Shown: positions 2,584-58,279 of the stretch, in pieces
Position numbering within the stretch: position 1 is the stretch's first letter
How the letters are laid out: each line of letters starts with the position of its first letter
From: an uncultured Ulvibacter sp.
Lineage (GTDB): Bacteria; Bacteroidota; Bacteroidia; Flavobacteriales; Flavobacteriaceae
Length of the DNA: 64,000 nucleotides
Direction: 5' to 3'
NCBI GenBank assembly: GCA_938041335.1
Contig: CALIAF010000005.1
Location: 25 to 64,024, forward strand
The notes under the pieces: generated by a model
Databases searched by the model: none
Told to the model about the DNA's origin: nothing
Seen by the model: only the letters and a program-made list of their open reading frames with translations
Position numbers and translations under genes: made by a program

Positions 2584-3042
2584 TTGAAAGAAAAAACAAT
2601 AGATTATATATTACGTAGCACTTGGATGGCGGTACAGAAAATGTACAATGAAGAAGCCGGCAGAAAAGGCAGTACGATGGCTACTGGTTTTGCACTGGTA
2701 AGTATCGATCCAGAAGAAGGTACGCCTTCTACCGCATTAGGCCCTAAAATGGGGATGGAAGCCACTTCCCTATCGCGTACCCTTAAAAAAATGGAAGAGC
2801 AAGGCTTAATCGTCCGCAAGCCCAACCCTAACGATGGTCGTGGCGTACTCATCCACCTCACGCCTTTTGGTGTGGAGATGCGCGAATTCTCTAAGAGCGT
2901 GGTCTTTAGTTTTGACGAGGCGGTAAAAGAGAACATTTCAGAAGAAGAAATAAGAATATTTAAAAAAGTTGCTGGGCAGATGATGGAGTTGATTAGTGAT
3001 AAGAAGATTTATAAGAATCAGGAATTAGGGATTAGGAACTAG
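2584..3042 (+). CDS. MarR-family transcriptional regulator of the fad operon
   Basis: wHTH motif TSLSRTLKKMEEQGLIVRKPNPNDGRGVLIHLTPFG; TTG start. Confidence 0.92.
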   Translation: MKEKTIDYILRSTWMAVQKMYNEEAGRKGSTMATGFALVSIDPEEGTPSTALGPKMGMEATSLSRTLKKMEEQGLIVRKPNPNDGRGVLIHLTPFGVEMREFSKSVVFSFDEAVKENISEEEIRIFKKVAGQMMELISDKKIYKNQELGIRN

Positions 3043-3047
3043 GGATT
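3020..3047 (+). repeat. Heptamer tract (AGGRAYT)x4 overlapping the marR 3' end
   Basis: AGGAATT AGGGATT AGGAACT AGGGATT; encodes the terminal ELGIRN. Confidence 0.8.
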
Positions 3048-3063
3048 AGTAAAAAGCAGAAAG

Positions 3064-3291
3064 AGATAAAATATTTCCTTCGGAAATAGGCTTGATTGAA
3101 GCACATTTCAGAAGAAAAAAAAATAGCTCAATTAGACGGCACCCTTTAGGGCCGGGGTGAGCACTAATAAAAAGTAGAAAGTATTAAGATAAAATATTTC
3201 CTTCGGAAATAGGCTTGATTGAAGCACATTTCAGAAGAGAAAAAGAATAAAAAATTAAAGTCCAAGTAGACGGCACCCTTTAGGGCCGGGG
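3064..3291. repeat. Tandem duplicated intergenic unit (52-bp and 25-bp identical blocks, each with a hairpin)
   Basis: 3064-3115 = 3187-3238; 3133-3157 = 3267-3291; hairpins TATTTCC-TTC-GGAAATA and CGGCACCCTTTAGGGCCG. Confidence 0.9.
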
Positions 3292-3326
3292 CAAGAAGAA
3301 TATAAAAACAATACATAATTAAGAAT

Positions 3327-5735
3327 ATGTCAAAACGAAGAATTAATAAAGTAGCCGTAATAGGTTCGGGAATTATGGGAAGCGGGATCGCTTGTCATTT
3401 TGCAAACATTGGCGTGGAGGTATTGCTCCTCGATATCATTCCACGTGAATTAAGCGATAAAGAAAAAGCGAAAGGCTTAACCCTAGAAGATAAAGTAGTG
3501 CGCAACCGTATGGTAAACGACGCATTAACGGCTTCTATAAAATCTAAGCCCGCTCCTTTATATAACACCGAGTTTGCAAAACGCATTACTACGGGGAACC
3601 TGACCGATGATATCGCGAAAGTAGGATCTGTAGATTGGATTATCGAGGTGGTCGTAGAGCGTCTTGATATTAAGCAGCAGGTTTTCGAAAACCTAGAAAA
3701 GCACAGAACACCAGGAACCTTGATTACATCAAACACCTCTGGGATTCCTATAAAATTTATGAGCGAAGGGCGTAGTGAAGATTTCCAGAAGCATTTCTGT
3801 GGAACGCACTTCTTTAACCCACCGCGTTATTTAAAATTATTTGAAATCATCCCTGGACCAAAAACAGCTCCTGAGGTTTTAGATTTCTTTAATAGCTATG
3901 GCGAACAGTTTTTAGGTAAGACCACCGTGGTCGCTAAAGACACGCCTGCCTTTATTGGTAACCGTGTTGGGATCTTCTCTATTATGAGTTTATTCCACGC
4001 CGTTAAAGAAATGGGATTAACCGTAGAAGAAGTAGACAAATTATCTGGACCGGTAATCGGTAGGCCTAAGTCGGCCACCTTTCGTACCGTAGATGTGGTA
4101 GGTTTGGATACTTTAGTACACGTAGCCAACGGGATTCGTGAAAACTGCCCGAAAGACGAGCGTGCTTCTTTATTTGAGCTGCCTGCATTCATCAATACGA
4201 TGATGGAGAACAAATGGCTAGGATCTAAAACAGGACAAGGTTTTTATAAGAAGACTAAAAATGCCGAGGGTAAGACCGAAATTCTAGGTCTTGACTTAGA
4301 CACCTTAGAATACAGAGCGGGTAAAAAAGCAAAGTTTGCCACATTAGAATTAACAAAAACCGTTGATAATGTAGCAGACCGCTTCCCTATCCTTGTTAAA
4401 GGAAAAGACAGAGCTGGTGAGTTTTATAGAAAGTCATTCGCTTCTTTATTTGCATACGTAACCAATCGTATTCCTGAAATATCTGACGAGTTGTACAAGA
4501 TTGATGATGCGATGAAAGCTGGTTTTGGTTGGCAACACGGGCCGTTCCAGATTTGGGATGCCATAGGCGTTGAAAAAGGAATCGAAATCATGAAAGCAGA
4601 AGGACTTGAGCCTGACGCTTGGGTGAACGATATGATCGCGAGTGGTGTGACTTCTTTTTACTCAGTAAAAGATGGCGCAACCTATTTCTACGACATTGCT
4701 AAAAAGGAACAAGTTAAAGTACCAGGACAAGATGCCTTTATCATTCTTGATAATGTACGTAAGACCACCGAAGTATTTAAAAACAGTGGTGTATCTGTAC
4801 AAGATTTGGGCGATGGGATCTTAAATGTAGAATTCCGCAGTAAAATGAACTCCATTGGAGGTGATGTGCTTGCAGGAATCAACAAAGCCATTGACTTAGC
4901 AGAAGATAAATATGACGGTTTAGTGATCGGAAACCAAGGCGCTAACTTCTCTGTTGGTGCAAACATAGGAATGATCTTTATGATGGCCGCAGAGCAAGAA
5001 TACGACGAACTAAACGCTGCTGTAAAGTATTTTCAAGATACGGTAATGCGTTTGCGCTACTCTTCTATCCCAACCGTAATGGCTCCTCACGGGATGACCT
5101 TAGGGGGTGGTTGTGAGTTGACATTACACGCAGATCGCGTGGTTGCCGCAGCAGAGAGTTATATAGGTCTGGTAGAATTTGGTGTCGGTGTGATTCCAGG
5201 TGGTGGTGGTTCTAAAGAAATGGCTTTACGTGCCAGTGATATGTTCCAAAAAGGAGATGTAGAGCTCAACGTATTACAAGAGCATTTCTTAACCATAGGT
5301 ATGGCAAAGGTTTCTACCTCTGCGCACGAAGCATACGACCTTGACATTTTAAAGCCAGGAAAAGATATCGTAGTCGTAAATACCAATCGCCAGATTGCAA
5401 CCGCGAAAGCCGTAGCAAGACAAATGGCAGATATGGGCTACACGAAACCAGCACCTAGAAACGATGTGAAAGTATTAGGAAAGCAAGCCCTAGGGATGTT
5501 CTTAGTAGGAACAGACTCCATGAACGCCAGTAAATACATAAGTGAGCACGATCAGAAAATCGCCAACAAACTAGCCTACGTAATGGCCGGTGGGGATTTA
5601 AGTGAACCACAACTGGTAAGCGAGCAATACTTGTTAGACCTAGAGCGCGAAGCATTCTTGAGCTTAACGGGAGAGCGTAAGACCTTGGAGCGACTTCAGC
5701 ATATGATACAGAAGGGGAAACCTTTGCGTAACTAG
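3327..5735 (+). CDS. fadN: 3-hydroxyacyl-CoA dehydrogenase / enoyl-CoA hydratase (FadN-like)
   Basis: GSGIMGSG Rossmann motif, SNTSG, HFFNPP, C-terminal crotonase GGGCE...GLVEFGVGVIPGGGG. Confidence 0.93.
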   Translation: MSKRRINKVAVIGSGIMGSGIACHFANIGVEVLLLDIIPRELSDKEKAKGLTLEDKVVRNRMVNDALTASIKSKPAPLYNTEFAKRITTGNLTDDIAKVGSVDWIIEVVVERLDIKQQVFENLEKHRTPGTLITSNTSGIPIKFMSEGRSEDFQKHFCGTHFFNPPRYLKLFEIIPGPKTAPEVLDFFNSYGEQFLGKTTVVAKDTPAFIGNRVGIFSIMSLFHAVKEMGLTVEEVDKLSGPVIGRPKSATFRTVDVVGLDTLVHVANGIRENCPKDERASLFELPAFINTMMENKWLGSKTGQGFYKKTKNAEGKTEILGLDLDTLEYRAGKKAKFATLELTKTVDNVADRFPILVKGKDRAGEFYRKSFASLFAYVTNRIPEISDELYKIDDAMKAGFGWQHGPFQIWDAIGVEKGIEIMKAEGLEPDAWVNDMIASGVTSFYSVKDGATYFYDIAKKEQVKVPGQDAFIILDNVRKTTEVFKNSGVSVQDLGDGILNVEFRSKMNSIGGDVLAGINKAIDLAEDKYDGLVIGNQGANFSVGANIGMIFMMAAEQEYDELNAAVKYFQDTVMRLRYSSIPTVMAPHGMTLGGGCELTLHADRVVAAAESYIGLVEFGVGVIPGGGGSKEMALRASDMFQKGDVELNVLQEHFLTIGMAKVSTSAHEAYDLDILKPGKDIVVVNTNRQIATAKAVARQMADMGYTKPAPRNDVKVLGKQALGMFLVGTDSMNASKYISEHDQKIANKLAYVMAGGDLSEPQLVSEQYLLDLEREAFLSLTGERKTLERLQHMIQKGKPLRN

Positions 5736-5743
5736 TTGTAGAG

Positions 5744-5793
5744 GACGTAGGACTTTTTTGCTTTACAGCAAAAATGACTTACGATGTACGACT
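5744..5793 (+). repeat. Opening GAC-heptamer tract upstream of the four-helix-bundle gene
   Basis: GACGTAG GAC ... GACTTAC GATGTAC GACT; 5776-5793 is reverse-complementary to 6178-6195 at 16/18 positions. Confidence 0.8.
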
Positions 5794-5813
5794 AAATTTT
5801 TAAGTGAAATAAT

Positions 5814-6179
5814 ATGGGAGCAAGACACAATTTTAGGAAACTGACTATTTGGAAAGAAGGGATAGAAATCGCTAAGGACACCTATGCTAACACCAAGCTT
5901 TTTCCTAAATCTGAAATGTACGGTTTAAGCAGTCAAATGCAACGCTGTGCTGTTTCAATCCCATCAAATATTGCTGAAGGAACATCACGTAATACAGATA
6001 AACACTTCAAACAATTTTTAGAAACCGCTTTAGGTTCTGCTTTCGAATGGGAAACACAATTAATAATTTCTTTTGAAATTGGATACATATCACAAGAAAC
6101 GTTCACACATTTAGAGAATAAAATACAGAGAATTCAAGGTATGATTACGAATTTTATTAATAATCTTCAAATCAAGTAG
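5814..6179 (+). CDS. Four-helix-bundle protein (23S rRNA IVS / bAvd-like family)
   Basis: HNFRKLTIWKEG...FPKSEMYGLSSQMQRCAVSIPSNIAEG...ALGSAFEWETQLIIS. Confidence 0.92.
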   Translation: MGARHNFRKLTIWKEGIEIAKDTYANTKLFPKSEMYGLSSQMQRCAVSIPSNIAEGTSRNTDKHFKQFLETALGSAFEWETQLIISFEIGYISQETFTHLENKIQRIQGMITNFINNLQIK

Positions 6180-6210
6180 TCGTAAATCGTACGTCGTACC
6201 GTCATAAGTC
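6178..6210 (-). repeat. Closing (inverted) GTC-heptamer tract
   Basis: AGTCGTAAATCGTACGTCGTACCGTCATAAGTC is the reverse complement of GACNTAC-type units. Confidence 0.85.
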
Positions 6211-6222
6211 AAAAATAAAATT

Positions 6223-7413: not shown

Positions 7414-7417
7414 AAAG

Positions 7418-7527
7418 GACGACTTACGACGGTAGGACGTACGACATTAGGACATACGACGGTACGACTTACGACAGTAGGACTTAGGACAGTACGACTT
7501 AGGACAGTAGGACTTACGACGTACGAC
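7418..7527 (+). repeat. 110-bp opening GAC tract with alternating 7-mer/8-mer units (15-bp higher-order period)
   Basis: GACTTAC GACGGTAG GACGTAC GACATTAG GACATAC GACGGTAC GACTTAC GACAGTAG GACTTAG GACAGTAC GACTTAG GACAGTAG GACTTAC GACGTAC GAC. Confidence 0.95.
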
Positions 7528-7528
7528 T

Positions 7529-7600
7529 TTTAAACATTAAAAAGGTAAAATTCATAAAATCCAAAGTATGATATCAAAATTTATAAGTACTATTTCATAA
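7529..7600 (+). pseudogene. 3' remnant 1 of a four-helix-bundle gene
   Basis: Translates FKH*KGKIHKIQSMISKFISTIS*, aligning to FTHLENKIQRIQGMITNFINNLQ of 5814-6179. Confidence 0.75.
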
Positions 7601-7615
7601 AACGTCATTTTTTTG

Positions 7616-7661
7616 GTCGTAAGTCGTAAGTCGTTTCGTCGTATGTCGTATATCTTATGTC
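7616..7661 (-). repeat. Closing GTC tract after remnant 1
   Basis: GTCGTAAGTCGTAAGTCGTTTCGTCGTATGTCGTATATCTTATGTC. Confidence 0.9.
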
Positions 7662-7672
7662 ATTGACAATCA

Positions 7673-7783
7673 ATAATAGCTTTTGAAATAGTGTAGATTT
7701 CGGAAAAAACATTTAAACATTTAGAAGATAAAATTCATAAAATCCAAAGTATGATCTCAAAATTTATAAGTACTACTTCATAA
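7673..7783 (+). pseudogene. 3' remnant 2 of a four-helix-bundle gene
   Basis: Translates IIAFEIV*ISEKTFKHLEDKIHKIQSMISKFISTTS*, vs IISFEIGYISQETFTHLENKIQRIQGMITNFINNLQ of 5814-6179. Confidence 0.85.
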
Positions 7784-7799
7784 ATCAGTATCACTTTTG

Positions 7800-7832
7800 G
7801 TCGTAAGTCGTTTGTCGTTTCGTCTTATGTCG
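7800..7832 (-). repeat. Closing GTC tract after remnant 2
   Basis: GTCGTAAGTCGTTTGTCGTTTCGTCTTATGTCG followed by TTGACAAT, as after remnant 1. Confidence 0.85.
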
Positions 7833-28485: not shown

Positions 28486-29949
28486 CTAGAGCCCACTAAT
28501 ATAACCTCCATACACATCTTTAAAACGCATACCATCTGTAAGGTTATATTTACTCAACTTTTTCATCTCCACTAAAGCCCACAAAATAAACTCTTTGAAG
28601 AAAGGGATATCATTGTATGGCACTTCTTGTGCATACTTATGGATTAAATCATCTAAGGGTTCTATTCTGTCTAACTGCAATTGATACTCGTTATCATCTA
28701 GGGTATCTAAAAGCTCAAAACTACTTTGCTCAAAAAACCAAGCTACTATTTCTTGATATGGATCGTGATCGTCTGCTTTTTGTAATTTTTCAATCTTAGG
28801 AAAATAATTTAAAAACTCCGTTTTAATAGCATCAGCCACCAATTGCTTTGCCACCTCATTTGCGCCTTCTTGCTCTCCTTCATATACCAACTCTACTTTA
28901 CCGGTTATGGCAGGTATTACCCCTAAAAAATCACTTACTCGCACACTGGTTTCTATATTACCATTAAGTAAACCTCTGCGTTCTGCCGTACTCAAAAGAT
29001 TTTGGAAAGCTGTGATACTTAAACGAGCACTTACACCGCTCTTAGCATCTACAAATTCGCTGTTTCTTGCCTCAAAACTAATTTGTTCTAAGATGTTTTT
29101 TGCCAGCTCTGGCACATACACATTGGATTTTTCTTTTGCGGCAGCAGCTGTTTCTTGTTGTGTTATTGTTCTAGCAATCTCTAAAGTTTCTGGATAATGC
29201 GTTAATATTTGAGACCCTATTCTATCTTTTAGTGGTGTTACAATGCTTCCTCTGTTCGTATAGTCCTCAGGATTGGCAGTAAACACAAACTGTATATCTA
29301 AAGGCAATCTCAATGCAAACCCTCTAATTTGAACATCTCCTTCTTGCAAAATATTAAATAGGGCTACTTGTATTCTTGCTTGTAAATCTGGAAGTTCATT
29401 AATCACAAAAATACATCGATGAGCTCGAGGGATCATCCCAAAATGAATCACGCGATCATCTGCATAACTCAATTTTAAATTCGCGGCTTTAATAGGATCA
29501 ACATCCCCTATTAAATCTGCAACCGTTACATCTGGTGTTGCTAGTTTCTCAGCAAAACGATAGTCTCGATGCAACCAACTTATTGGTGTATCATCTCCCT
29601 TTTCTTCAAGCAGGTTTTGAGCATATCTTGAGATAGGTTTTAAGGGGTCATCATTGATTTCGCTACCCGCTACAACTGGAATATACTCATCCAATAATGT
29701 AATCATTTGTCGTGCAAGCCTTGTCTTTGCTTGCCCTCTCAAGCCTAGAAGATTGATATTATGTTTAGACAAAATAGCGCGCTCTAGTTCAGGTATCACG
29801 GTATGTTCATACCCGTGAATCCCTTCAAAGACCGTTTCTTTTTTCATCATCTTTTGCAACAAATTACGTCGCAATTCTTCTTTTACTGTCTTGTATTCGT
29901 AACCGGCTTTTTTAAGTGCGCCGAATGTTTTTATGTTTTTTATATCCAT
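28486..29949 (-). CDS. AAA+ ATPase (Mg-chelatase-like / sigma54-interaction-like), partner of the VWA protein
   Basis: GLRGQAKT variant Walker A, INELPDL, FTANPEDYTNRG, DRIGSQI. Confidence 0.85.
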   Translation of the reverse strand: MDIKNIKTFGALKKAGYEYKTVKEELRRNLLQKMMKKETVFEGIHGYEHTVIPELERAILSKHNINLLGLRGQAKTRLARQMITLLDEYIPVVAGSEINDDPLKPISRYAQNLLEEKGDDTPISWLHRDYRFAEKLATPDVTVADLIGDVDPIKAANLKLSYADDRVIHFGMIPRAHRCIFVINELPDLQARIQVALFNILQEGDVQIRGFALRLPLDIQFVFTANPEDYTNRGSIVTPLKDRIGSQILTHYPETLEIARTITQQETAAAAKEKSNVYVPELAKNILEQISFEARNSEFVDAKSGVSARLSITAFQNLLSTAERRGLLNGNIETSVRVSDFLGVIPAITGKVELVYEGEQEGANEVAKQLVADAIKTEFLNYFPKIEKLQKADDHDPYQEIVAWFFEQSSFELLDTLDDNEYQLQLDRIEPLDDLIHKYAQEVPYNDIPFFKEFILWALVEMKKLSKYNLTDGMRFKDVYGGYISGL

Positions 29950-29963
29950 AGTTTTATTTTTTT

Positions 29964-30106
29964 AGAAGCAAGAGGAAAGACGGTTCCTGCGGAACTGAAA
30001 GAGGAAAGATTAAATGTAAAAAATCTTCTAATTCTTCTTATCTAATTCTTCATCAATTCTTTCTTCTTTCAATAAGCCAAGGGAAAGGTCTTTACTTCTT
30101 ACTTCT
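29964..30106 (-). repeat. GAAAGA-family self-complementary element, copy 1
   Basis: Purine arm 29964-30009 with hairpin GTTCC-TGC-GGAAC; pyrimidine arm 30057-30106. Confidence 0.85.
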
Positions 30107-30109
30107 CAT

Positions 30110-30466
30110 TTATTGTAATGTTTTCTGAAATCCGGCCGTCATTCTTTGCCATTCTTCTATTTGACATTCTAACTCTTGTAATTCTTTAATGGTAATATAA
30201 TTTTTATGTTGTGCAATTAATAATTGCATGTTTAATTCATAAGATGACCCCATAGCAATATCTATAAAATGAATAAAAGATTTTTCACTTCTAGCAGAGC
30301 CTTCTGCTATATTACTGGGTATAGAAACGGAACACCTACTAATTTGGGATGTAAGACTATATTGCTCTTTACTAGGGAAATTTTCTATTTTATCTGAAAC
30401 GACAAAAGCAATATTTAAAGCTTTTTGCCAAATTTTTAAATTTCTGAAATTGTGTTTTTTATTCAT
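30110..30466 (-). CDS. Four-helix-bundle protein (23S rRNA IVS / bAvd-like family), second copy
   Basis: HNFRNLKIWQKA...FPSKEQYSLTSQISRCSVSIPSNIAEG...AMGSSYEL. Confidence 0.92.
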   Translation of the reverse strand: MNKKHNFRNLKIWQKALNIAFVVSDKIENFPSKEQYSLTSQISRCSVSIPSNIAEGSARSEKSFIHFIDIAMGSSYELNMQLLIAQHKNYITIKELQELECQIEEWQRMTAGFQKTLQ

Positions 30467-30479
30467 AATTACTGTTTTT

Positions 30480-30639
30480 AGAAGAAAGAAGAAAGACCGT
30501 CCGCCCAGGCGGACTGAAAGAGGAAAGACTTAACTACTCCCAACTTATTGCTTATTCTAAAATCAATCTTTAATCAATATTATCCATTCTGTCTTTCTTC
30601 TTTCAATGAGCGAAGCGAATGGTCTTTCCTCTTACTTCT
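30480..30639 (-). repeat. GAAAGA-family self-complementary element, copy 2
   Basis: Arms 30480-30529 and 30591-30639; hairpin GTCCGCC-CA-GGCGGAC; insert GAGCGAAGCGAATG. Confidence 0.9.
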
Positions 30640-30646
30640 CCATTTT

Positions 30647-31813
30647 TCACCTCAATTTCCGTTTCCTATTATTCTCATAATCGGTAAATATCATCTCTCC
30701 TAATCCTTGCAAGCCTGTATAAAAGGCTTTCCCTTGATTTGCTTCTGTAAACGCATCTACAAACTGCTGTAAGTAGGGGTCACTGGCAATCATAAAGGTT
30801 GTAATTGGAATATGTAACTTTCTAGCCTGAGCTGCCATCATATAACACTTGTTTACAATGTGCTCATCTAAGCCATTACTGTTTTTATAATATCGCCCAT
30901 CTGGCAAACGCAAGCAACTTGGCTTTCCATCTGTGATCATAAAAATCTGTTTGTTGGTATTTCGCTTTCTGCGAAGCATATCCATTGCCAGTTGCAACCC
31001 TGCTACTGTATTTGTGTGATACGGTCCTACATTAAGATACGGCAAATCTTTAATTTTAATAGGCCAGGCATCATTCCCGAAAACTAAAATATCTAGTGTA
31101 TCTTTTGGGTATCGTGTTGTGATTAACTCTGCTAGTGCCATTGCCACTTTCTTGGCTGGTGTGATTCTATCTTCTCCGTAAAGTATCATGGAGTGACTAA
31201 TATCAATCATCAACACCGTGCTCATTTGCGATTTATGCATCGACTCTTCAACCACCAGATCATTTTCTGTTAACTTAAAATCCCCTATTCCATTATTGAT
31301 TTGGGCATTTTTTATACTCTCAGTCATCGAGATTTGATCTAGGGCATCGCCAAATTGATACTTTCTAAAATCACCAGATTGCTCGTCACCACTACCCATA
31401 TATTTTGTTTTGTGATTGCCTTGACCGCTTCTTTTGATCTTTCCAAATATTTGCTCTAAGGCACGTTTCCGGAGGGCTCGCTCTAGTTTTTCTGTGATAG
31501 AAATCCCGCCTTTCCCATCTCCTTTATTCCCACCTTTTCCATCTGGCTTAAACTCCTCTCTTATGTAACCACGGTCTTTTAATTCTTGAATAAAATCGTC
31601 AATGGTATAGTCTTCTGTGGTTATTTCATATTCTTGATCTAACTGTCTCAACCAATCTATGGCTTCATCAAAGTCACCAGAGGTGTGCGTGATTAACTCT
31701 TGAAAAACTTCAAAAAGACGATCAAAAATGGATTTCTCCTTTGGGGTATGTTTGGTAAAAATAAAACCCGATTTAAAGTCTGGGTTAAGGCTATTATTTT
31801 TGTCTTTCGTCAT
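30647..31813 (-). CDS. VWA-domain protein
   Basis: MIDAS-like DISHSM, HTNTVAGL, FMITDGKPS. Confidence 0.88.
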   Translation of the reverse strand: MTKDKNNSLNPDFKSGFIFTKHTPKEKSIFDRLFEVFQELITHTSGDFDEAIDWLRQLDQEYEITTEDYTIDDFIQELKDRGYIREEFKPDGKGGNKGDGKGGISITEKLERALRKRALEQIFGKIKRSGQGNHKTKYMGSGDEQSGDFRKYQFGDALDQISMTESIKNAQINNGIGDFKLTENDLVVEESMHKSQMSTVLMIDISHSMILYGEDRITPAKKVAMALAELITTRYPKDTLDILVFGNDAWPIKIKDLPYLNVGPYHTNTVAGLQLAMDMLRRKRNTNKQIFMITDGKPSCLRLPDGRYYKNSNGLDEHIVNKCYMMAAQARKLHIPITTFMIASDPYLQQFVDAFTEANQGKAFYTGLQGLGEMIFTDYENNRKRKLR

Positions 31814-31935
31814 TTGATAAAATTACTACAATTTAAAGTTTAACATCCCTAAGATATTGTTAAACAAATATGGGTTTATTAATTCTCTTCGGAAATAGTA
31901 AAACCATTCTAAATAAGTCTACAAATTTTTAAAAA

Positions 31936-31984
31936 TTCTTTCTTCTTTCAACAACCGAAGCGAATGGTCTTTCTTCTTTCTTCT
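31936..31984 (-). repeat. GAAAGA-family half element (opening arm only)
   Basis: TTCTTTCTTCTTTCAACAACCGAAGCGAATGGTCTTTCTTCTTTCTTCT, near-identical to 30591-30639. Confidence 0.85.
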
Positions 31985-32070
31985 ATTTTGTAGCAGCTTC
32001 TCCAAATTTTATGATACGTACTGCCGAAGTTTTTTTATCTTTAAGCTTTAATCAACCAAGCCAATTTCCG

Positions 32071-35292: not shown

Positions 35293-37239
35293 ATGAAAAA
35301 TTTACTAATCATCACAGGATGTGCTTTACTCCTATTGGCGTGTAAAGACAATGCCAAAGAATACAGCACCGCAAAAACGGAAGTAGCAAACTATACCATT
35401 GAGCAATTTATGGATAATGAGAGTGCCTTTGCTAATGGCTACTCGTCAGACAAGAGTAAAATTTTGATGACCAGTAATCGCTCAGGGATTTTTAATATGT
35501 ACACCACAAGTGGAACCGGTGGCGAAGTAATGCCTATTACAAAAAGTGACAGCGCCTCTATTTATGGAATATCGTATTTCCCAGAAGATGATCGTATTCT
35601 TTTTAGAATGGATGGAAATGGCGATGAAATTTTCAAAATTTTTATGAAAGATGGAGAAACAATTAAAGCATTGACACCTGTCGAGAAAGTACGCGCTTTA
35701 TTTCAAGGATGGTCTAAAGATGGAAAACAGTTTTCTTACGCAAGTAATGAAAGAGACCCAAGGTATATGGATCAATACGAAATGGACATTGCTACTTTGA
35801 CTTCAAAAATGGTATATCAAGCAGAAGAAGGAATTGATTTTGCAGGAATGACAGAAGACAAAAAACACATTGCCTTGTTAAGCCCAATAAACACTAATGA
35901 TTCTGACTTGTACGTTCTAAATACTGAGACTGGAATCAAAACAAAAGTGAATGACAATGTGAGCGGAAATAGCCCTCAAGATTTTTCACCAGATGGTAAG
36001 TCTATGTATTATACTACTGATGATGGTGGCGAGTTTAGCTATGTAATGAAATATAATATCGCAGAAGGGACTAAAGAAAGGGTGATTGAAAGGGATTGGG
36101 ATATCAATGGGTATAGCTTTTCAGAAAATGGTAAATATCAAACTACTTTTATAAATGAAGATGCAAAAAACAGTATAGAAATCACAGAAGTTGCTACAGA
36201 AACAGCTTTGGACTTACCTTCTGTAGATGGTAAAGAGATTACAGGCGTTACATTCTCTCGCGATGAAGAATCAGTTTTATTGCGAATAGGAGGGTCTAAC
36301 ACCCCATCAGATTCGTATTCGTATAATTTAAAAACTAAAGCGTTATCTAGACTTACTGAAAATCTAAACGACGAGATTATGCAAGATGATCTTGTATCAG
36401 CTAAAGTAATTAGATATCGTTCTTTTGATGGTGTAGAAATTCCTGCAATCTATTACCAACCTATTCAGGCAACAGCAGATAACCCTGTCCCAGCACTAGT
36501 TTGGGTTCACGGAGGACCAGGTGGTCAGTCTAGACAAGGTTTTAATAGTACGATCCAGTATTTAGTAAATCACGGATATGCAGTACTAGCAGTGAATAAT
36601 AGAGGAAGTAGCGGCTATGGTAAGACCTTCTATAAAATGGATGACCAAAACCACGGAGACAAAGATTTAAAAGATTGTATTGCTGGTAAAGATTGGTTGG
36701 CTGGGCAAGAGGTTATTGATGGTGATAAAATTGGAATTATCGGTGGCTCTTATGGAGGTTATATGACTATGGCTGCACTAACCTATGCTCCAGAAGAATT
36801 TAATGTGGGTGTAAATATTTTTGGTGTAACCAACTGGATGCGTACCTTAAAAAATATTCCGCCATGGTGGGAATCTTTTAAAGACGCATTATATACTGAG
36901 ATGGGTGATCCAAATACAGAAGATAGTATTCGTTTAAAGCAACAGTCTCCCCTATTTCATACAGAAAATGTAACAAAGCCATTAATGGTTTTACAAGGTG
37001 CAAAAGACCCAAGAGTATTACAAATAGAAAGTGATGAGATCGTTGCAGGTGTGCGTAAAAATGGAGTTCCTGTAGAATACGTTTTGTTTGAAGACGAAGG
37101 CCATGGTTTTGTAAAGAAAGAAAATAGAATTGAAGCCTATGGAAAAATCAAAGAGTTTCTAGACCTCTATTTAAAAGGTAGTGCAGAAGTAATGAATGAT
37201 GGAGAGCAACAAAAACCAATTAAGATAGACACGCATTAG
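35293..37239 (+). CDS. S9-family prolyl oligopeptidase / acylaminoacyl peptidase, lipoprotein
   Basis: VHGGPGG, GGSYGG nucleophile, DPRV, DEGHGF. Confidence 0.92.
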   Translation: MKNLLIITGCALLLLACKDNAKEYSTAKTEVANYTIEQFMDNESAFANGYSSDKSKILMTSNRSGIFNMYTTSGTGGEVMPITKSDSASIYGISYFPEDDRILFRMDGNGDEIFKIFMKDGETIKALTPVEKVRALFQGWSKDGKQFSYASNERDPRYMDQYEMDIATLTSKMVYQAEEGIDFAGMTEDKKHIALLSPINTNDSDLYVLNTETGIKTKVNDNVSGNSPQDFSPDGKSMYYTTDDGGEFSYVMKYNIAEGTKERVIERDWDINGYSFSENGKYQTTFINEDAKNSIEITEVATETALDLPSVDGKEITGVTFSRDEESVLLRIGGSNTPSDSYSYNLKTKALSRLTENLNDEIMQDDLVSAKVIRYRSFDGVEIPAIYYQPIQATADNPVPALVWVHGGPGGQSRQGFNSTIQYLVNHGYAVLAVNNRGSSGYGKTFYKMDDQNHGDKDLKDCIAGKDWLAGQEVIDGDKIGIIGGSYGGYMTMAALTYAPEEFNVGVNIFGVTNWMRTLKNIPPWWESFKDALYTEMGDPNTEDSIRLKQQSPLFHTENVTKPLMVLQGAKDPRVLQIESDEIVAGVRKNGVPVEYVLFEDEGHGFVKKENRIEAYGKIKEFLDLYLKGSAEVMNDGEQQKPIKIDTH

Positions 37240-37251
37240 TGTTGCGTAATG

Positions 37252-37279
37252 AGTAGTAAGTAGTAAGTAGTAAGTAGTA
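37252..37279 (+). repeat. Heptamer tract (AGTAGTA)x4
   Basis: Perfect tandem between the S9 peptidase stop and the next start. Confidence 0.9.
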
Positions 37280-37294
37280 AAAATAAAAAAATAA

Positions 37295-38032
37295 ATGAAA
37301 AAAATATGTTTCGCCCTTTTATTGGGGTTAATAGCGAATGCCGCACACGGTCAAATAAACGTTCCAGAAACTGGAGAAGATAAGTTAGGCAGTTGGGTTA
37401 TGTTTTTTGGAAATGCTCGCTTTACCGAGCGCTTTAGTATCAGTCCTGAAATCCAGTACAGAACCTACGAAGTGGGGTCCAATTTTAACCAACTCTTAAT
37501 AAGAAATGGTTTTAATTGGCATATAAATGATAAAGCTACTGCAACATTAGGTTATGGATATATAGCTACCGATGGCACTTTTGAAGAACCTAATGGTGAA
37601 GAAAACACCACAGAACATAGATTCTATGGACAGTTTGCGCTCAAAAACGCTGTTGGAAAAATTAAGTTTTCACATCGTTATAGACTTGAACAACGATTTA
37701 TCAATAGCCCTACTAGTGGTAACGACACCCAATATAGAGCACGTTATTTATTAAGACTCACCTACCCTATTAATGAGACCTGGTATGTAAGCGCCTATGA
37801 CGAAGTTTTTATCAACCTACAAGAACCCATCTTTAGTCAAAATAGATTGTATACTTCGGTGGGTTATAAATGGTCTAAAAACCTAAGATCTGAATTTGGG
37901 TATTTAAAAAACCATTTTACTGGGATTAATTATGATCGTTTACAGTTAGGTTTTTGGTATTCCTTAGACTTAAGAAACGAAACGTCAGACAACAACAAAG
38001 CAAATTTTGAACAAGGAAAAAGAATGTTTTAA
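37295..38032 (+). CDS. DUF2490-like outer-membrane beta-barrel protein
   Basis: LGSW, EIQYR, EHRFYGQ, HRYRLEQRF, RARY, DEVFINL, QNRLY. Confidence 0.8.
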   Translation: MKKICFALLLGLIANAAHGQINVPETGEDKLGSWVMFFGNARFTERFSISPEIQYRTYEVGSNFNQLLIRNGFNWHINDKATATLGYGYIATDGTFEEPNGEENTTEHRFYGQFALKNAVGKIKFSHRYRLEQRFINSPTSGNDTQYRARYLLRLTYPINETWYVSAYDEVFINLQEPIFSQNRLYTSVGYKWSKNLRSEFGYLKNHFTGINYDRLQLGFWYSLDLRNETSDNNKANFEQGKRMF

Positions 38033-56578: not shown

Positions 56579-57693
56579 TGGCAAAAGCACTCCGTTTTAA
56601 AAGTTATACTAAAAGACAATTCTGGTTTTATACCAAACGCGCATTATGGGTGCTATTTGCTTGGACCCTGATTGCCGTAGTGCTTTTCTATTTTGAGTAT
56701 TACACGCTAATAAGTGAAAATGCCTTAACCTCTCAATACGACTTTGAGCAAGCATTTACTGCAAATTTAATTATGGCAGTATCTGCAGGGCTTATAGGTG
56801 GTATAGTTACGGTAAACCTCATGGAAAGATGGCTTCGGAAATATGCTTTCTGGAAGGCACTTACTTTAATTATAGTTACCTATATCGTTGCAGCACTTAT
56901 AGTAAGCAGTATTGCGGGGCTTTATTATTACAGTGAGCAGGATGGCTTACCCTTAACACATCCAGATGTTTTAGCCGAATTTGACGGCTTTTTTAAAGAA
57001 TGGATCTTTATAAAAAACTTTATTATCTGGCTTTTCATTGTTATAGGCACCCTAATCGTATTTATGATTAACAATAAGTTTGGTCCAGGTGTATTTCCAG
57101 ATTACCTAATGGGCCGCTATTTTCATCCTAAACGTGAGAAACGTATTTTCATGTTTGTCGATATCAAGGACGCCACTACCATTGCCGAAAATCTTGGAGA
57201 AGAAAAATACTTCAATTTTTTAAAAGATTTTTTTAGAGATATCGCACCAGCCATTGTCATCACTAAAGGAGAGGTGTATCAATATGTAGGTGATGAAGTT
57301 GTAATTTCATGGAAAATGAAAAATGGACTTAAAAAAGGTAACGTGCTGCATTGTTACTATAGTATGCTTAAAATAATTAATCAAAAAGCTTCTCGATATC
57401 AAAGTAAATATGGTCTTGTACCTGAGTTTAAAGTAGGTATTCATTTTGGCCCAATTATGGTGGGTGAACTAGGAGAAATTAAAAGAGAGATCGTATTTTC
57501 TGGAGATGTTTTAAACACGGCTGCTAGAATTAGTGCCAAATGTAATGATCTAGGAGTTTCGATTTTAGCCTCAAAAGAGTTTGCAAACATCACAACAGAA
57601 CTACCTAAATATGTAAAAGTAATTGATGTAGGTGAAGAAAACCTTAAGGGAAAAGCAGAAGATGTGGCACTTGTCACCTATAAAAAAATATAA
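56578..57693 (+). CDS. Membrane-bound class III adenylate/guanylate cyclase-domain protein
   Basis: Four TM segments; FMFVDIKDAT, YQYVGDEV, GIHFG, FSGDVLNTAARI. Confidence 0.9.
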   Translation: MAKALRFKSYTKRQFWFYTKRALWVLFAWTLIAVVLFYFEYYTLISENALTSQYDFEQAFTANLIMAVSAGLIGGIVTVNLMERWLRKYAFWKALTLIIVTYIVAALIVSSIAGLYYYSEQDGLPLTHPDVLAEFDGFFKEWIFIKNFIIWLFIVIGTLIVFMINNKFGPGVFPDYLMGRYFHPKREKRIFMFVDIKDATTIAENLGEEKYFNFLKDFFRDIAPAIVITKGEVYQYVGDEVVISWKMKNGLKKGNVLHCYYSMLKIINQKASRYQSKYGLVPEFKVGIHFGPIMVGELGEIKREIVFSGDVLNTAARISAKCNDLGVSILASKEFANITTELPKYVKVIDVGEENLKGKAEDVALVTYKKI

Positions 57694-57712
57694 ACTTAAA
57701 ACAGCTATCAAT

Positions 57713-58072
57713 ATGAAAACAGATGCGTACACAAAAGTCATTCTAACTGTTATTGCGGTTTGCTTAACGCTAAACGTGGTTCAAAATTTAGATATTATTC
57801 CTACTGCCCAAGCAGCTAATACTAGTTTGGAAACTCCAGAAGTAGAATACCATTTAGTCCCTGTAACACCTAACCAAGTGATGGACGTGCGCATTGTAGA
57901 TATAAACACCTCAGACGAGATGAACATAAATATTAAAAGTGTAGACACCTATGATGAGTTTAAAGTAAACCTAAAAAGTATAGATACCACTGACGAACTT
58001 GATATCAATATTGATGAAGTAGGCGGCTCTTGGGTTTCTAGTGGAGGACCAATAAAAGTGAAAGTGGAGTAA
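57713..58072 (+). CDS. Hypothetical exported protein with 13-residue repeats (start moved from 57632)
   Basis: MKTDAYTKVILTVIAVCL; VRIVDINTSDEMN/INIKSVDTYDEFK/VNLKSIDTTDELD. Confidence 0.75.
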   Translation: MKTDAYTKVILTVIAVCLTLNVVQNLDIIPTAQAANTSLETPEVEYHLVPVTPNQVMDVRIVDINTSDEMNINIKSVDTYDEFKVNLKSIDTTDELDINIDEVGGSWVSSGGPIKVKVE

Positions 58073-58073
58073 A

Positions 58074-58210
58074 AAAAGACCGCTTCGCTGAAAGATAAAA
58101 GACCAATCGCTTCGCTCTTTGAAATAAGAAAGACTTGAATCAACTTTTATTTAGACAAAAAGTCATTCTTCTTTCAGTGCGCCTTGGCGCACGGTCTTTG
58201 TTCTTTGTTC
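58074..58210 (+). repeat. GAAAGA-family self-complementary element, copy 3
   Basis: AAAGACCAATCGCTTCGCTCTTTGAAATAAGAAAGAC ... GTCATTCTTCTTTCAGTGCGCCTTGGCGCACGGTCTTTG, starting right after a stop codon. Confidence 0.88.
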
Positions 58211-58227
58211 AAATATTATAAAATAAA

Positions 58228-58261
58228 AAAACCGCGTTCTACAAAAGCAGCACGCGGTTTT
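58228..58261 (-). terminator. Terminator after ndk
   Basis: AAAACCGCGT...ACGCGGTTTT. Confidence 0.75.
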
Positions 58262-58279
58262 AAATGTTATAAAATGTTC

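Follow-up and report, generated by a model that had tools for sequence, protein, structure and literature searches.

A PF05635 gene between inverted heptamer arrays: a candidate selfish cassette in a flavobacterial VWA–AAA ATPase operon

Why does a small gene with palindromic flanks stand between two genes that are direct neighbors in most related bacteria? The question is raised by HB1, a gene for a four-helix-bundle protein of 118 amino acids (aa) with a VWA gene on one side and an AAA+ ATPase gene on the other, in an uncultured Ulvibacter sp. (contig CALIAF010000005.1, assembly GCA_938041335.1), of which we analyzed a stretch of 64,000 nucleotides (nt), called here the window. The answer that we favor, giving it about as much belief as doubt, is that the locus represents the insertion of a foldback-type selfish cassette, resembling the intervening sequences (IVSs) of 23S rRNA, into a conserved VWA–AAA ATPase operon. 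Most relatives lack the insert, and of the close ones some have it and others do not; other clades, Xanthomonas, and phage contigs show the same design again. The parts of the locus, in the order in which they are read, are:

30647..31813, minus strand: VWA gene (VWA_2; Rv0959_3rd in orthologues), by Pfam profiles; upstream host gene of the insert
30467..30646, minus strand: U2, palindromic unit that fills the gap from the VWA stop codon to the HB1 start codon, by RNA fold and inverted repeats I2, I8, and I13
30590..30645, minus strand: 5' "A" half of U2, AGAAGTAAGAGGAAAGACC - ATTCGCTTCGCTCAT - TGAAAGAAGAAAGAC, a multi-copy module
30478..30530, minus strand: 3' "B" half of U2, GTCTTTCCTCTTTCA - GC hairpin GTCCGCCTGGGCGGAC - GGTCTTTCTTCTTTCTTCT, then an A-run and the HB1 start codon
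30514-30499, minus strand: terminator-like hairpin of U2
30110..30466, minus strand: HB1, 118-aa four-helix-bundle gene with an Avd-like fold (PF05635 / TIGR02436, the "23S rRNA IVS protein" or "S23p" family)
29950..30109, minus strand: U1, palindromic unit separating the HB1 stop codon from the ATPase start codon; it aligns with U2
30055-30109 and 29960-30010, minus strand: A half and B half of U1
29995-29983, minus strand: terminator-like hairpin of U1
28486..29949, minus strand: AAA+ ATPase gene (AAA_5 / Mg-chelatase-like), by Pfam profiles; downstream host gene of the insert

Read along the minus strand, the order is VWA, U2 (180 nt), HB1, U1 (160 nt), AAA ATPase, and we infer that the three genes are co-transcribed. 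The family assignment of HB1 is firm: the protein matches PF05635 (23S_rRNA_IVP) with E 2.8e-31 and 108.3 bits (cut-off 33.8) and TIGR02436 with E 1.8e-29 and 102.2 bits (cut-off 24). The only other Pfam match is to bAvd (PF22296; 29.7 bits, below the cut-off of 40), and NF033474, a further Avd profile, also stays below its cut-off (26.8 bits, E 5e-6, cut-off 80). Specifically, the AlphaFold2 model of HB1 (pLDDT 94.6) consists of four helices and superposes on 2gsc (XCC0516) with a template-modeling (TM) score of 0.88-0.92, on 2rld (BT_0352) with 0.77-0.81, and on the Avd structures 4dwl and 8ub7 with 0.77-0.80. Comparison with orthologues yields dN/dS values of 0.08-0.13, with dS saturated; the gene is under purifying selection. 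No reverse transcriptase gene or template/variable repeat pair is present at the HB1 locus, where the neighbors are the VWA and ATPase genes, and Rfam at its gathering threshold finds no family, hence no rRNA, in the whole window.

The case for an insertion comes from the junction in relatives. With the ATPase protein as the query, 80 species-level loci were collected from the Flavobacteriia (L001-L080). In 78 of them, the VWA gene directly neighbors the ATPase gene, at a median distance of 87.5 nt and at 130 nt or less in 58. A single species representative among the 78, L004 (Aequorivita capsosiphonis), has an HB gene at the junction. Relatives with ATPases 87, 83, and 81% identical to that of the window have gaps of 47, 5, and 58 nt, respectively, and no GAAAGA repeat lies in those gaps; thus, gene and arms are present or absent together. 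Starting from the protein, five of the six nearest HB1 homologues looked up reside at the VWA–ATPase junction, namely P0003 (81% identity), P0008 (77%), P0014 (69%), P0020 from Polaribacter (64%), and P0039 (61%). Orthologues of the gene occupy the same junction in L081 (ATPase 93% identical), L084, L004, L111, and L112. Occupancy is patchy over short distances: the window and L081 are filled and L001 (ATPase 87%) is empty, and L004 is filled and L061 lacks the HB gene, although the ATPases of the latter two are 92% identical. By this comparison, the HB1 cassette is to all appearances inserted into a conserved VWA–AAA ATPase operon. A preliminary description of this DNA had placed HB1 between same-orientation VWA and ATPase genes, splitting their operon; the gene order stands, and the insert is missing from 77 of the 78 species.

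The filled junctions differ in their arms. In its simple form, found in L081, the cassette is one palindrome consisting of A half, HB gene, spacer, and B half, with the gene in the loop. In L084 (3637-4000), eleven tandem copies of a 31-nt purine A module precede the HB gene; L085 (3823-4000), like L084 a metagenome contig, has five copies, and its HB protein is identical to that of L084. The difference in copy number is arm length variation of the variable-number-tandem-repeat type. In L004, L111, and L112, degenerate purine arrays precede the HB gene and pyrimidine arrays follow it.

Junctions that lack an HB gene are not uniformly bare. The junction of L061 (4901-5001), the Aequorivita relative of L004, carries a CTTTGTG-type / CAGCTG-rich repeat and is not a clean empty site, and ORF-free repeats (ORF, open reading frame) occupy the VWA–ATPase junction in further genera. 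Other small genes also reside there: a GIY-YIG gene of 103 aa (L011:4398-5001), a GNAT gene of 147 aa (L034:4338-5001), and DUF559/Vsr-like genes of 119 and 122 aa (L038:4444-5001 and L041:3943-5001), with a remnant in L023:4445-5001. Several of these occupants bring inverted hairpin repeats of their own: the GIY-YIG gene of L011, for instance, is enclosed by CTCGAGCGGAGTCGAGAGG and its complement, and in L041, units of about 190 nt are repeated on either side of the DUF559/Vsr-like gene. This variety of small genes suggests that the junction is a general landing or tolerance site for small cassettes.

What are the arms made of? The GAAAGA heptamers reported earlier on both sides of HB1 are indeed in the sequence, and the arms nearest the gene are mutually inverted as described: in arm pair I12, 30058-30070 (TCTTTCTTCTTTC) and 30484-30496 (GAAAGAAGAAAGA) are 100% complementary over 13 nt. 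The preliminary description missed that the flanks are full palindromes, that they are direct repeats of each other, and that the 7-nt period is the constant of the family. U1 and U2 are 80% identical by column, and each is a long imperfect palindrome of GAAAGAA/GAAAGAC tandem heptamers; on the sense strand of U2, the 5' half is purine-rich and the 3' half pyrimidine-rich. In sense orientation, a unit comprises a purine-rich A half (AGAAG.AAGA.GAAAGACC, a 15-nt linker A.TCGCTTYGCTCRT, and TGAAAGA.GAAAGAC), a spacer of 48-61 nt between the A and B halves, a pyrimidine-rich B half (GTCTTTCCTCTTTCA, a short GC hairpin, and GGTCTTTC.TCTT.CTTCT), and an A-run followed by the start codon of the next gene. 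As sense-strand RNA, U2 folds at -57 kcal/mol (z -4.3) and U1 at -47.6 kcal/mol (z -5.6), and for neither unit does any of 200 shuffles fold equally well. The duplex between the upstream and downstream flanks of HB1 reaches -109 kcal/mol (z -10). The pattern GAAAGA[ACG]GAAAGA occurs three times in the 64 kb, every time in the HB1 flanks; its complement occurs four times, twice in the HB1 flanks and twice in a solo copy upstream of the VWA gene.

Two terminator-like sites, and no others, lie between 29800 and 32100: they are the GC hairpin plus T-rich tail of each B half, both on the sense strand. The letters of the hairpin vary among U1, U2, U3 (a further copy in the window, described below), L081, and L084, and pairing is kept in all. 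An Rfam E-value scan of 29900-30700 gave only chance matches resembling miRNA hairpins, and the units are therefore not a described RNA family. Two further readings of the layout were considered and dropped. Derivation of the U-HB-U layout from the A-HB-B layout of L081 by a single duplication, deletion, or circle integration, or by tandem duplication plus deletion, does not reproduce the order of the parts. A reading as an integron cassette with attC-like hairpins fails in that there is no integrase and the arms are arrays of simple sequence repeats (SSRs).

The design extends far beyond this operon. Similarity of the protein was the sole basis on which 25 non-redundant distant HB homologues were picked from viral contigs. 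Inverted heptamer arrays enclose most of them, each with its own unit: GAGTGGA, TTGGCTG, GGGAATT, GAACTGA, GGTAAGA, GGCAGAA, GTTGCCA, TTCAACG, and others, more than 20 in all. When a strong array is defined as a lag-7 score of at least 0.75 in a 150-nt flank, strong arrays accompany 22 of 39 HB genes, and 14 of the 25 in the viral sample, compared with 2.3% of 919 control windows, which are mostly coding sequence. Strong arrays at lags 5, 6, and 8-10 number about zero, and autocorrelation is 0.45 at lag 7 versus about 0.31 at other lags. The flank duplex has z of -3 or lower in 21 of the 39 elements, and complementarity of the two flanks scores z -3 to -10 in most elements. Polarity is shared as well: the upstream array has G>C in 32/39 and the downstream array C>G in 32/39. 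In Xanthomonas, relatives of XCC0516 between accB and accC have GGGAATC-type heptamers upstream and the complement downstream, up to the accC start codon. What is constant across the family is the 7-nt period, not any one sequence.

Phage contigs supply filled and empty versions of one site. L151 and L152 carry an HB cassette and L153-L155 do not, at 97-98% identity of the neighbor protein and 86-87% identity of the flanking DNA. In L152, the insert lies precisely where a stop and a start codon overlap (ATGA), replacing about 65 nt with no target-site duplication; its arrays (3100-3650) give the upstream gene a new C-terminal tail and stop codon and the downstream gene a new ATG. At a second phage junction, five contigs are filled (L231-234 and L242) and about 30 relatives lack the cassette. 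The next gene at that junction reads the heptamer array as an extension of its N terminus (L231:2990-3480, L242:2990-3470). Since a 7-nt unit is not divisible by 3, no stop falls in the frame used in the read-through arrays of L152, L231, and L242. Two HB genes at the second junction (L231:3026-3472 and L242:3018-3431, in related phages) are only 45% identical, within flanks about 77% identical and the same GGGAATT arrays, which suggests that either the ORF was exchanged inside conserved arms or the insertions were independent. Thus, the empty sites whose existence in relatives was at issue in the preliminary description are common, both at the VWA–ATPase junction and on phage contigs. On phage contigs, the HB gene is often antisense to its neighbors, and several of these cassettes have a TAnnTTTG box between array and start codon, which we take to be the Bacteroidetes -7 promoter element.

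The notion is that the cassette consists of a PF05635 gene bracketed by inverted 7-nt arrays, G- or purine-rich upstream and their C- or pyrimidine-rich complement downstream on the sense strand, and that in this genome the arms would have grown into two full palindromic units, U2 and U1. In a transcript of either strand, the insert would be drawn by the arms into a hairpin and insulated from the flanking cistrons, which could make the insert tolerable, as in the 23S rRNA IVSs. The B halves, with their GC hairpin and T-rich tail, may act as a leaky terminator or attenuator between VWA, HB1, and ATPase, and the A-rich run that follows could restore a start region for the next gene. Spread would be simplest by recombination between homologous heptamer arrays, with doublets lacking an HB gene as the landing pads, or else by transfer together with flanking genes. 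Recombination between arrays would account for the link between protein clade and arm type set out below, for doublets without an HB gene serving as targets, and for two different HB genes being found in the same arrays.

Several observations weigh against a recently mobile, loop-borne cassette. HB divergence approximately tracks ATPase divergence, so the data agree as well with old residence followed by repeated losses as with recent mobility or repeated homing. A look for RNA runs that contain the locus gave none, and no excised or empty-site allele was seen in the source metagenome. (Long "skips" there were considered as excision; their 27-nt anchors lie inside both genes, and they were dismissed as cross-species mis-joins.) Neither target-site duplications nor defined ends were found in the window, in the orthologues, or in the phage filled/empty pairs, and the phage example above is a replacement of nucleotides rather than a clean addition. 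In the window, HB1 lies between two self-contained hairpins and not within one. When G-U was set against A-C mismatches as a guide to the strand under selection, the sense fold was more stable than the antisense fold in 8 of 9 cases, a weak advantage, with small margins and among related, non-independent loci. Finally, the coding nature of most control windows counts against the lag-7 comparison.

The strongest competitor makes the protein the partner of the repeats. Specifically, PF05635 proteins would be cognate to heptamer inverted arrays: an HB oligomer would recognize the sequence of its own arrays in single-stranded RNA or DNA, each subunit taking one 7-nt unit, and would propagate, mobilize, maintain, or regulate them in a manner resembling REPIN-RAYT or TRAP, with HB-less doublets as non-autonomous or regulated partners. 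We regard this proposal as tentative, and it falls short of the insertion reading. Evidence for it comes from a second HB gene in the window, in the fad operon, and from the relatives of that operon, where the thiolase gene is followed by an acyl-CoA dehydrogenase (ACAD) gene:

5736..6222, plus strand: HB2 cassette (ORF 5814-6179) with GAC/GTC heptamer arms, between fadB-like and thiolase genes
7417..7830, plus strand: GAC-family unit without an HB gene, at the thiolase–ACAD junction of the window

HB2 is 42% identical to HB1, and the motifs HNFR.L.IW and SIPSNIAEG are in both proteins, as the claim of paralogy had it; the HB2 flanks are built of GTACGAC/GTAGGAC heptamers (flank duplex z -3.4), in keeping with the GAC type ascribed to them. 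Genes of the HB1 clade (61-81% identity, n=8) have purine heptamers upstream and pyrimidine heptamers downstream, both at the VWA–ATPase junction (6 genes, six lineages) and at the thiolase–ACAD junction (2 genes, Nonlabens and Polaribacter). HB2-clade genes (n=5, in five genera) all lie at the fadB–thiolase junction and have nnnnGAC upstream and GTCnnnn downstream. A third clade, represented by L114b, has TAAGTAC upstream and GTACTTA downstream. The thiolase–ACAD junction, which holds an HB gene in Nonlabens, Polaribacter, and Sinomicrobium, is a point where clades meet: the HB genes there in three genera (L110:5001-5360, L113:5197-5547, L114:5185-5535) are of different clades. In L115 (5098-5186), the same junction has a hairpin only, without an HB gene, of the AGTAC type found around L114b. 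In Nonlabens and Polaribacter, the HB1-type gene at this junction has a GAC-armed HB2-type element as its operon-mate. Where two cassettes share an operon (L110, L113, and L114), each retains its own, different arm type. Arm type thus goes with HB clade and not with junction, across genera and despite saturated synonymous sites.

Further points favor a partnership. Copies of the same repeat family without an HB gene exist in the same genome, and a period of 7 nt does not keep phase with the helical repeat of DNA. The crystal entries 2gsc and 2rld each hold five chains, an HB1-type protein is probably a pentamer, and its structural relative Avd is a pentamer that binds nucleic acid and reverse transcriptase. 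Protein identity and heptamer similarity are correlated (Spearman 0.38); this is the outcome on which the preliminary description had made its protein–repeat association depend. That association, with arms typical of each clade, holds up; the co-evolved specificity code that it was taken to imply is not supported, given that the repeats are not private to the HB genes and that proteins and heptamers are mismatched in several cases. Unrelated heptamers (GAGTGGA and GGTAAGA) accompany proteins 58-66% identical, whereas GGGAAT(T/C) is common to proteins merely 40-45% identical, including the two HB genes at one phage junction. A pattern scan of metagenome contigs found L108, a distant HB gene about 30% identical to HB1, with GAAAGAC heptamers before it. 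The SIPSNIAEG motif is invariant whatever the heptamer, and the isoelectric point of HB1 is only about 8.6. Moreover, correlation between arms and protein within clades is expected from common descent of the whole cassette. A strict protein–repeat code is therefore not supported by the sequences.

Less probable still, and in our view unlikely, is that the repeats are host intergenic elements unrelated to HB genes, such as stabilizers resembling repetitive extragenic palindromic (REP) sequences, attenuators or terminators, or slippage-prone SSRs, in which an HB gene simply lands or survives. Its appeal derives from the many copies that lack the gene, among them two of the GAAAGA family in the window:

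31930..31985, minus strand: solo half-unit of A type, in a divergent intergenic region about 120 nt upstream of the VWA start codon, with boxes at 31936 and 31967
58078..58212, plus strand: U3, a complete unit without an HB gene, in the 3' region of an unrelated gene (57632..58072)

L101 has an A half at the position orthologous to U3. In X1 and X2, the two metagenome runs holding the source contig, the A half (30592-30639) reaches a summed word depth of 556 (X1; baseline 43.6) and of 105.6 (X2; baseline 10.3). The A half is thus present in about 10-13 copies (about 10-13-fold over-represented) in the source metagenome, where the B half is only about 2-fold over baseline; contigs carrying the A half have diverse flanking sequence, several of them at genome-like depth. 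The pattern scan that found L108 also recovered the 31-nt A module without an HB gene in L090/L099 (nine tandem copies), L103, and L101. U1 and U2 accordingly belong to a dispersed family of intergenic repeats, like REP sequences or MITEs (miniature inverted-repeat transposable elements), and are not private to HB1. HB-less units outnumber HB-linked ones, and a Xanthomonas genome has 186 heptamer arrays, 70 of them in inverted pairs, which have been read as G-quadruplex SSRs (PMC4692102). The terminator-like 3' halves, the variation in copy number (11 versus 5) beside identical HB proteins, and the GIY-YIG and DUF559 genes that bring hairpin repeats of their own to the VWA–ATPase junction would likewise suit host elements.

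The window has other heptamer arrays without an HB gene, also in favor of host elements. An array of GGGATTA/GGAATTA type crosses the MarR stop codon (3011-3290), and after it the MarR–fadB intergenic region contains two direct repeats of about 125 nt (AAATATTTCCTTCGGAAATAGGCTTGATTGAAGCACATTTCAGAAGA...GACGGCACCCTTTAGGGCCGGGG). At 37242-37290, between the co-oriented genes 35293..37239 and 37295..38032, a one-sided (GTAGTAA)x5 array with an A-run has neither an inverted partner nor an HB gene. Directly after U3, between convergent genes, a GC-rich hairpin with A- and T-runs at 58228-58262 (AAAAAAACCGCGT...ACGCGGTTTT) looks like a bidirectional terminator.

Four observations speak against host elements that merely receive the gene. 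The empty VWA–ATPase junctions of the nearest relatives lack the repeat altogether. The arrays abut the ORF, and the downstream arm often starts within the stop codon (TA|GTC). In 32/39, the arrays have the same polarity with respect to the HB gene. At the thiolase–ACAD junction, arms are of the purine type with an HB1-type gene and of the GTAC type with a gene of another clade. That HB1 is instead a domesticated component or regulator of the VWA–ATPase system is most improbable: strong purifying selection, an orientation shared with the operon (as in 16/16 chromosomal cassettes examined), and retention at the junction from Ulvibacter-like organisms to Polaribacter would suit it, but HB is absent from 77/78 species representatives with the operon, the PF05635 family also occurs in unrelated operons (fad, accBC), phage genomes, and 23S rRNA, and PADLOC defense models match none of HB1, HB2, the VWA protein, and the ATPase, nor did any other system model match.

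PF05635/TIGR02436 is a very large orphan family, with profile matches in 37,473 clusters at 50% identity, and its only functional anchors are rRNA IVSs and the relative Avd in diversity-generating retroelements (DGRs). The present locus and the comparisons tie this family to long-unexplained intergenic heptamer repeats: its genes are typically enclosed by inverted heptamer arrays, lie precisely at junctions between genes, and are present in some and absent from other close relatives. The protein family, the rRNA IVSs, and the heptamer SSRs were each already known; our literature search found no paper describing PF05635 genes nested between clade-typical inverted heptamer arrays at gene junctions in several phyla and in phages, and one may exist. 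If the link is functional, it offers a direct handle on both puzzles, and the protein could be a compact scaffold that recognizes short repeats. If the cognate partnership is true, the elements would form an unrecognized selfish or regulatory class across bacteria and phages, and they would account for 23S rRNA IVSs, for the GGGAATC repeats of Xanthomonas, and possibly also for the cyanobacterial short tandemly repeated repetitive (STRR) sequences. For annotation, HB cassettes split operons and can rewrite the ends of neighboring genes.

Each known system shares part of this design. Closest in protein are the 23S rRNA IVSs: in Coxiella burnetii and Leptospira, the S23p ORF occupies the loop of a stem formed by 28-bp terminal inverted repeats and cut by RNase III (PMC4990558). 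Like the HB1 cassette, these IVSs encode a PF05635 protein within complementary, stem-forming termini, are sporadic among relatives, and are regarded as selfish (PMC4990558). They differ in that the host of HB1 is a protein-coding operon junction and not helix 9, 25, or 45 of 23S rRNA, and in that the HB1 arms are tandem heptamer arrays, here two full palindromes, whose cleavage by RNase III is only putative. Avd of the DGRs has the same fold and a weak profile match, and forms a pentamer that binds reverse transcriptase and RNA; HB1, below the Avd cut-offs, has no adjacent reverse transcriptase or template/variable repeats. Foldback transposons and MITEs share long inverted termini made of short sub-repeats, coding-free copies that outnumber gene-bearing ones, and variable arm length. 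Unlike them, the HB cassette yielded no transposase, target-site duplication, or defined ends, and its mobility is inferred from presence and absence only.

The REPIN-RAYT system offers the nearest parallel for a gene and its repeats. As reportedly described by Bertels and Rainey, REP doublets are dispersed in intergenic regions and flank a Y1 transposase gene. In both systems, one gene lies between inverted copies of a repeat that is also dispersed as intergenic hairpin doublets, protein clades are paired with repeat families, and inheritance is largely vertical at fixed sites. HB1 differs as a 118-aa four-helix bundle without the HUH/Y1 domain of IS200/IS605-like transposases, and the HB arms differ as 7-nt arrays of variable copy number, with several paralogous cassettes per genome and operon. 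Finally, the heptameric SSRs of Xanthomonas (GGGAATC) and the STRR of Nostoc and Calothrix are likewise intergenic tandem 7-mers, often convergent inverted pairs, at operon junctions and with lengths that vary from one relative to another (PMC4692102). They were read as G-quadruplex-forming in Xanthomonas, with no protein link proposed, and the over-represented intergenic heptamers of the two cyanobacteria were noted without explanation (PMC4692102). The overlap shown here is for Xanthomonas only, and there it is direct: the GGGAATC arrays bracket an XCC0516-type gene between accB and accC.

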